Source: a virus (taxonomy: Duplodnaviria; Heunggongvirae; Uroviricota; Caudoviricetes). From it: DNA of 23,639 nt. The stretch lies in IMG/VR virus record IMGVR_UViG_2874945390_000005; one strand, written 5' to 3'. A program made the position numbers and the translations under genes. Position 1 is the stretch's first letter. Every line of letters begins with the position of its first letter. Positions 15,241 through 15,880 of the stretch are shown here, one piece after another. The notes under the pieces are model-generated. The model was not told where the DNA came from and did no database searches. It saw only the letters and a list, made by a program, of their open reading frames with translations.

Positions 15241-15880
15241 ATGGCTACTACCCTTTCTCACCCTGACGTAACCATCGAAAATGGTCGCGCCGTCACTACT
15301 TCTATTTCGATTGCTGAGTTTTTTTGGCAAGCAGCATCACCATGTTGTTCAGAAAATAGAATCCCTCGAATGCTCTGAGCAATTCTTAACCCGCAACTTT
15401 TCGCGGGTTAAATTCGAACACCGAGGCAATACCTATAACGCCTACCAAATCACCAAAAACGGCTTCGTTTTTCTGGTGATGGGCTTCACCGGCAAAAAAG
15501 CAGCTGCATTCAAGGAAGCCTACATTGCTGAATTCGATCGCATGGAAAAACAACTATGGGAACAGAAACAACTGGCCCTGTCTTCTCCTGCGATGAATAT
15601 CAATTTCCCTTTATCGTGGTTTTCAGAGCATCACCCCTATGCCACGATGAACTATGTTGATAGAAATACATTGCAGCTTGATACCTCCGTCTTATTCGAC
15701 ATGCCAAGCCCTGCAATGCGCATATTTAATGAATTACGTCGTAACGGCTATAACGTCGATGCGGCTGTCGCCGAATTTAACGCCTTCAAGCATCTGACGG
15801 AAGAAATGCGCCGTAAATTGCTGGATATTTCCCGCACATCGGAAAAGTCTTCCCGCTTTGGTTTCAACGTTAATCTTTAA
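15241..15880 (+). pseudogene. rha: Phage regulatory protein Rha, frameshifted in a T7 homopolymer (15319-15325)
   Basis: ATG at 15241 with GAGGA upstream. MATTLSHPDVTIENGRAVTTSISIAEFF switches frame to GKQHHHVVQKIESLECSEQFLTR...GFVFLVMGFTGKKAAAFKEAYIAEFDRMEKQL. One fewer T would restore a single Rha ORF. Confidence 0.75.

Follow-up and report, generated by a model that had tools for sequence, protein, structure and literature searches.

A one-base homopolymer difference splitting the rha gene of a Shigella isrK/C4 antisense-RNA module is probably a long-read consensus error

Two described systems are closest to the locus analysed here. In the immI region of bacteriophages P1 and P7, the c4 antisense RNA is followed by the icd and ant genes. 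In the Gifsy-1 prophage of Salmonella, the isrK-orf45-anrP operon carries a leader RNA that gates translation of a downstream antirepressor-like gene; its orf45 is a conserved structured region that is processed to an RNA of ~80 nt, and the isrK terminator is leaky (PMC4825925). In S. dysenteriae, orf45 appears to be fused to anrP (Hershko-Shalev et al. 2016, PMC4825925).

The stretch of DNA analysed in this study (referred to as the window; 23,639 nt) has a comparable locus, surrounded by lambdoid/Stx-type prophage remnants that are cut by IS elements. A 12.6-kb locus from the assembly CP026836.1, listed as Shigella boydii (PMC12817139), is identical to the window. The genes before the module are arranged in the order DEAD-box helicase, cro-like, cI-like LexA-family repressor and HicAB, followed by isrK, C4 and rha. 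After rha come a kilR-like gene, a 93-aa ORF, gamL, an IS-cut recT, exo and further IS copies. The parts of the module upstream of rha, and three of the genes downstream, are as follows.

14998-15074, plus strand: isrK-type small RNA with its terminator (Rfam RF01394, 61.6 bits against a gathering threshold of 50), containing the C4 targets b1 (15019-15029) and a1 (15037-15047)
15099-15186, plus strand: C4-type antisense RNA, corresponding to "orf45" in Gifsy-1 (Rfam RF01695, 78.6 bits against a gathering threshold of 45), with loops a' (15141-15152) and b' (15158-15167)
15187-15233, plus strand: rha leader with the C4 targets b2 (15187-15197) and a2 (15223-15233), located by pairing analysis
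15951-16163, plus strand: kilR-like "cell division inhibitor" gene of 70 aa in the same operon (PF27398, KilR)
16477-16758, plus strand: gamL with the genuine nonsense codon Q21* (CAG to TAG, 16537-16539), shared by six other assemblies (L015, L016, L020-L022 and L028)
16776-17378, plus strand: recT, truncated to 200 aa by the insertion of an IS3-family (IS600-like) element that starts at 17376, with the same junction in a contig (L020) of the run ERR200293

The two loops of the C4 RNA are complementary to two pairs of sites, one located in isrK and the other in the leader of rha. Within the latter, the a2 site (15223-15233) covers the Shine-Dalgarno sequence of rha, GAGGA (15230-15234), which lies at the right distance from the rha start codon, ATG 15241. 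The C4-like RNA would thus pair with the rha leader over its ribosome-binding site. When three immunity types were compared (that of the window and two E. coli Stx-prophage types), loop and target sequences were found to co-vary (TAGCAC/GTGCTA, TGCTAC/GTAGCA and TAGGAC/GTCCTA), and loop a' formed 12 (window), 13 and 9 contiguous pairs with its cognate a2 site, as opposed to 4 to 7 pairs in the non-cognate combinations. Judged from these pairings, the co-variation indicates putative heteroimmune specificities, as for the c4 RNAs of P1 and P7. A calculation with RNAduplex using the whole C4 RNA and the leader gave an over-long duplex (-48, against a minimum of -51.6 for shuffled sequences), and it was dropped in favour of the site-by-site comparison. 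The module is well preserved, with three co-varying specificities, and it is of a known kind; as an isrK/C4 antisense-RNA immunity module within a lambdoid prophage remnant, it has rha as its protein output.

As given in the window, rha has no single uninterrupted frame for the whole Rha domain, since the frame is broken after codon 28. The break coincides with a run of seven Ts, which divides this member of the Rha family into a stub of 45 aa and a remainder of 199 aa.

15241-15378, plus strand: 5' part of rha as read in the window, consisting of ATG 15241 preceded by the Shine-Dalgarno sequence GAGGA, 28 Rha codons, 17 out-of-frame codons and TGA; the start codon and the Shine-Dalgarno sequence are conserved in homologues
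15281-15880, plus strand: 3' portion of rha, read in the +1 frame, a mechanical 199-aa ORF (WP_349290601.1 in RefSeq) whose ATG has no Shine-Dalgarno sequence
15319-15325, plus strand: T7 homopolymer, one T longer than the T6 of every other copy of the same allele, shifting the rha frame after codon 28 (from the sequence and a comparison with 28 independent copies)

Translation from ATG 15241 yields MATTLSHPDVTIENGRAVTTSISIAEFF, then the 17 out-of-frame codons up to TGA at 15376-15378, giving 45 codons in total. The +1 frame, already open ahead of the tract, continues via ...GKQHHHVVQKIESL... to TAA at 15878-15880. The T tract encodes the Phe-Phe of a conserved AEFF motif, and deletion of one T restores a single ORF of 212 aa plus the stop codon. 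An earlier reading of this DNA, made from the sequence only, had placed a T7 tract that breaks the Rha frame at exactly this position, and it had estimated the T6 product at about 213 aa, which is right to within the stop codon. Its assignment of the gene to the Rha family also holds, as the repaired 212-aa protein matches Pfam PF09669 (Phage_pRha) over the entire profile (positions 1-91, 92.7 bits, with a gathering cut-off of 29.9 bits). With the 199-aa ORF, the match is limited to profile positions 9-91 (79.2 bits), and a Pfam search with the 45-aa stub gave no match. It follows that the Rha domain spans the break, and that rha was once continuous across the tract. A P1-like arrangement, with the short overlapping ORF as an "icd-like" leader gene, was ruled out because the Rha profile crosses the break and all relatives are in frame.

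The C-terminal half of Rha (residues about 104-212, encoded by 15553-15877) carries no Pfam domain. It is 50-80% identical to proteins that have an N-terminal AntA/AntB (PF08346) or ORF6N (PF10543) domain, which suggests a set of modular antirepressors with exchanged N-terminal domains. By analogy with the Gifsy-1 operon (PMC4825925), and given the C-terminal half shared with antirepressor-annotated proteins, we infer that Rha may possess antirepressor activity.

Homopolymers of at least seven bases occur 12 times in the 23.6-kb window, and a T7 tract as such is not unusual. What distinguishes this one is that the frame break coincides with it and that homologues have six bases at the site. 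T6 was found in 28 of the 28 independent copies of the same allele that could be read, namely 15 near-identical Shigella copies, one copy interrupted by IS1 (L038) and 12 copies in IMG/VR, the latter with a match length of 37 nt that corresponds to T6. None of these 28 copies has T5, T7 or T8, and T7 was seen only in loci cut from CP026836.1. The protein data agree: in a large protein collection, only one contig, that of CP026836.1, has the exact 199-aa product of the broken gene (assigned to Shigella boydii in RefSeq), and the intact T6 protein, with the same sequence or with R198C, is present on at least 93 contigs (19 for P0125 and 3 for P0121; 68 for P0123 and 3 for P0128, both R198C variants).

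A comparison with homologous rha genes, proposed in the sequence-only reading, found all of them in frame with six bases at the tract. Diverged E. coli alleles, 80-89% identical, have either GAG-TTC-TTT-GAC or GAA-TTT-TTT-GAC, and the closest of them interrupt the tract as TTCTTT, so that an uninterrupted run is not maintained across relatives. In complete E. coli genomes and phage records the best matches, again all in frame, are 89% identical, and at this identity they serve to polarise the indel rather than as a same-allele test of it. When JGI metagenome contigs and GTDB species representatives were scanned by pattern, the allele was not found in them at any tract length. Exact look-ups of the upstream ORF that bears the junction (15022-15378) and of a 236-aa ORF at 21529-22239 gave no match; the former has a non-standard ATT start and, as a query, is probably unlike the stored product.

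These comparisons bear on whether the T7 tract has a regulatory role. A phase-variable switch, in which reversible T6/T7 slippage toggles Rha expression within populations, was one of three options in the sequence-only reading, and it finds no support here. A coding-region homopolymer near the 5' end, where a 1-nt change toggles the frame, is what such a switch would use. However, no length polymorphism exists among the 28 copies, and functional relatives interrupt the tract (TTCTTT), i.e., the run is not conserved. A run of seven is also short compared with known contingency loci. We regard the switch as very improbable. A similarly slim chance is given to programmed recoding, in which +1 ribosomal slippage on UUU_U, or transcriptional slippage, would yield full-length Rha and put an extra control on a potentially toxic antirepressor. 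On the sequence UUU UUU U, tRNA-Phe can re-pair perfectly after a shift into the +1 frame, and RNA polymerase may slip to some extent on T/A runs. However, the two-frame layout exists in one record only, all homologues being in frame with six bases (T6 or TTCTTT), the 0 frame has neither a stop nor a rare codon at the site (UGG follows), and there is no stimulator specific to the T7 allele.

A true, strain-private pseudogene has more in its favour. Here, T6 would have become T7 by a very recent slipped-strand insertion, leaving rha as a pseudogene in a decaying, IS-riddled lambdoid remnant. Elsewhere, this allele has suffered independent inactivating lesions: W106* (TGG to TAG at 15558) is present in three copies (L006, L007 and P0129) and W126* (TGG to TAG at 15618) in three others (L010, L050 and L053), an IS1 insertion near codon 194 cuts off the 3' end of rha in L038, and in P0026 the whole Rha domain has been lost by an in-frame deletion between two IAEF-coding repeats. 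The rha gene is thus demonstrably dispensable in Shigella. In addition, the lineage of the window has the genuine nonsense codon in gamL and the IS-cut recT. Since the prophage remnant is truly decaying, as the gamL nonsense codon, the IS insertions and the rha nonsense codons of sister lineages attest, a real lesion in rha would be unsurprising, and this counts against an artefact. Both Trp codons of rha have changed to TAG in separate Shigella lineages, which may reflect recurrent gene loss, in a sample that is biased by ascertainment. An apparent excess of nonsense changes in rha (two of three substitution events, P about 0.001-0.004) was not relied on, because two of the loci had been fetched for being truncated.

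Were the T7 tract real, the consequences would be that: translation from ATG 15241 ends after 45 codons; the 199-aa remainder, lacking a ribosome-binding site, is made only via rare slippage; and the long untranslated stretch could lower expression of the downstream kilR-like gene, the last point being an inference only. A further proposal takes the T7 tract as real and as one of several independent inactivating hits, together reflecting selection to silence the output of the isrK/C4 module in defective prophages. Such selection might, for example, prevent induction of the neighbouring kilR-like toxin, and a little expression might persist through residual slippage on U7. We consider this proposal improbable.

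The nearest relatives argue against a real T7 tract. A contig (L020) from the short-read run ERR200293, a near-identical strain that may differ from the sequenced isolate, aligns with window positions 15261-17403 with 0 mismatches over 2,142 nt, the only difference being its T6. The match takes in gamL Q21* as well as 27 nt of the IS that interrupts recT. The Q21* mutation, carried by at least six independent short-read or other assemblies, is a useful marker of the sub-lineage of the window, and all six independent assemblies of this sub-lineage (L015, L016, L020, L021, L022 and L028) have T6. A real insertion would therefore have to post-date everything else, given that T6 is present in the nearest relative, which shares the IS junction exactly and shows 0 substitutions over 2.1 kb; nor does any second assembly show T7.

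A second difference of the same kind was found upstream of the module, in the region covered by three independent contigs.

11404-11405: window-only 1-nt homopolymer difference, CC here and CCC in 3 of 3 independent contigs (L031, L032 and L033), with 4,359 nt otherwise identical to L032

The contig L032 (SRR8186698) aligns with window positions 9890-14247 with no mismatch and one gap, which is this C-run difference. It lies just upstream of the start of the DEAD-box helicase gene (10263-11378, minus strand) and is probably a second consensus error. In total, 9.3 kb of unique DNA compared with the nearest independent relatives contained two window-only 1-nt homopolymer indels (11404 and 15319) and no window-only substitutions. 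Such a pattern, with two homopolymer indels but zero substitutions that are private, is more in keeping with error than with evolution. However, the assembly is not wrong at every homopolymer, since the states of the window at 11605 and 11944, which are unlike those in L006, L007 and L009, are confirmed by short-read contigs, and this speaks for a real T7, as does the identity of its two IS600-like copies over 1,265 nt. A third site is less informative: at 960, within the integrase gene (minus strand, about 1-1073), there is G in the window as against GG in 7 of 7 other copies, which frameshifts the phage integrase (357 aa elsewhere, called as 231 aa in this genome), and as these comparators also differ by 4 substitutions, error and real mutation are inseparable there.

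Homopolymer indels also occur in the siblings of CP026836.1, which come from the same accession block. In CP026877, CP026875 and CP026824, there are 2, 4 and 5 one-base homopolymer deletions, respectively, per 4-5 kb (11 in total). None of them occurs in any other copy, in the E. coli outgroups or in 12 other assemblies. For two of these deletions (13429 and 14456), one and the same G run is affected in assemblies of different sub-lineages, a recurrence that phylogeny cannot explain and that points to systematic error. These recurrent G-run deletions are likely to be systematic consensus errors that inflate pseudogene counts. One-base G-run deletions are seen in the sibling long-read assemblies L009, L010 (CP026875.1) and L024, and one of them, in L010 at the equivalent of window position 12752, splits the cI-like repressor into pieces of 51 and 121 aa. 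The assembly series is described as "generated with PacBio sequencing" in a passage of PMC10132075, and, going by its accession block, CP026836.1 apparently belongs to this PacBio-only series.

Taken together, the T7 tract has the features of a long-read error: it is found in a single assembly, short-read assemblies of near-identical strains disagree with it, and the same assembly or series has other private homopolymer indels, unaccompanied by private substitutions. Because it belongs with indels that come without substitutions, are private to long-read assemblies and are contradicted by short reads, the comparisons suggest that T7 is probably a homopolymer over-call in the consensus of the long-read-only assembly CP026836.1. 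One point of detail stands against this, as the evident errors of the series are all deletions, mostly in G/C runs, and T7 is an insertion in a T run. Among the three options of the sequence-only reading, an artefact is thus favoured over the private pseudogene, which we regard as the less likely, yet by no means negligible, explanation. That reading had also named accurate T6 reads as the sign of an assembly error. T6 is indeed seen by proxy, in the short-read assemblies of near-identical strains rather than in the reads of the isolate itself. The real chromosome would then probably carry T6 and an intact 212-aa rha gene. The frame break is probably not biology, and otherwise it is an ordinary private pseudogene in a decaying prophage.

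The main value of these observations is a caution about the assembly series and its annotation, since the public record hides the frame break: RefSeq names the 199-aa remainder (WP_349290601.1) as an ordinary "Rha family transcriptional regulator" with no frameshift flag. Counts of Shigella pseudogenes based on this series would be too high, as exemplified by the split cI-like repressor in the sibling and possibly by the integrase here. The upstream end of the gene raises a separate annotation issue. Gene callers extend homologous Rha ORFs to 256-298 aa through the isrK and C4 RNA genes (14998-15240; L001-L005, P0002, P0123 and P0125), and Pfam PF10554 (Phage_ASH) matches exactly the translated isrK/C4 RNA region. 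The PF10554 family may therefore rest in part on translated RNA genes. The true start of rha is ATG 15241, with its own Shine-Dalgarno sequence.

Two direct copies of an IS3-family (IS600-like) element (8655-9919 and 17376-18640), identical to each other over 1,265 nt (100%), bracket the immunity/rha region, the second one interrupting recT, and recombination between them could delete a 7.5-kb segment. Another IS3-family element (6310-7615) is 96% identical to IS1203 and has an ALIL pseudoknot at 6645-6761; 4 bases are missing around 6884-6887, splitting its orfB into overlapping ORFs of 118 and 222 aa, and it is probably a dead IS copy. A second prophage remnant contains an ORF6N/P22-antirepressor-C gene (1354-2136, minus strand), and its 5' end is overlapped by an Rfam match to sRNA-Xcc1 (2051-2134, minus strand, 78 bits). 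A second ORF6N fragment is located at 3837-4262, with an IS630-like element between it and this gene.

In comparison with known systems, the T7 tract resembles the errors of long-read-only assemblies in being a single-base homopolymer change, confined to one assembly, with indels in the siblings and no accompanying substitutions. It differs from the other evident errors of the series, which are G/C-run deletions, in being a T-run insertion. It also resembles Shigella prophage decay, as the remnant is dense in IS elements, rha has nonsense and IS lesions in sister lineages, and gamL has a lesion here; unlike those rha and gamL lesions, T7 has no confirmation from a second assembly.

The locus itself resembles the Gifsy-1 isrK-orf45-anrP operon in the order of its parts, i.e., isrK, a structured region (here the C4 match) and a leader-controlled gene, and the orf45-anrP fusion of S. 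dysenteriae fits the in-frame upstream extension in the 258- to 298-aa gene calls. As regards differences, the downstream gene here encodes a Rha-domain protein, and its frame is broken in this one record. Differences from the immI region of P1 are that the antirepressor-type gene comes first here and the division inhibitor after it, that the protein is of the Rha type and not P1 Ant, and that the module resides in a lambdoid prophage remnant. The locus shares with P1/P7 immI: a C4-family RNA (RF01695) with two loops complementary to upstream and downstream target pairs; the overlap of the downstream target pair with the ribosome-binding site of the first gene; the co-variation of loop and target sequences between heteroimmune types; and a cell-division-inhibitor gene, here kilR-like, in the same operon.
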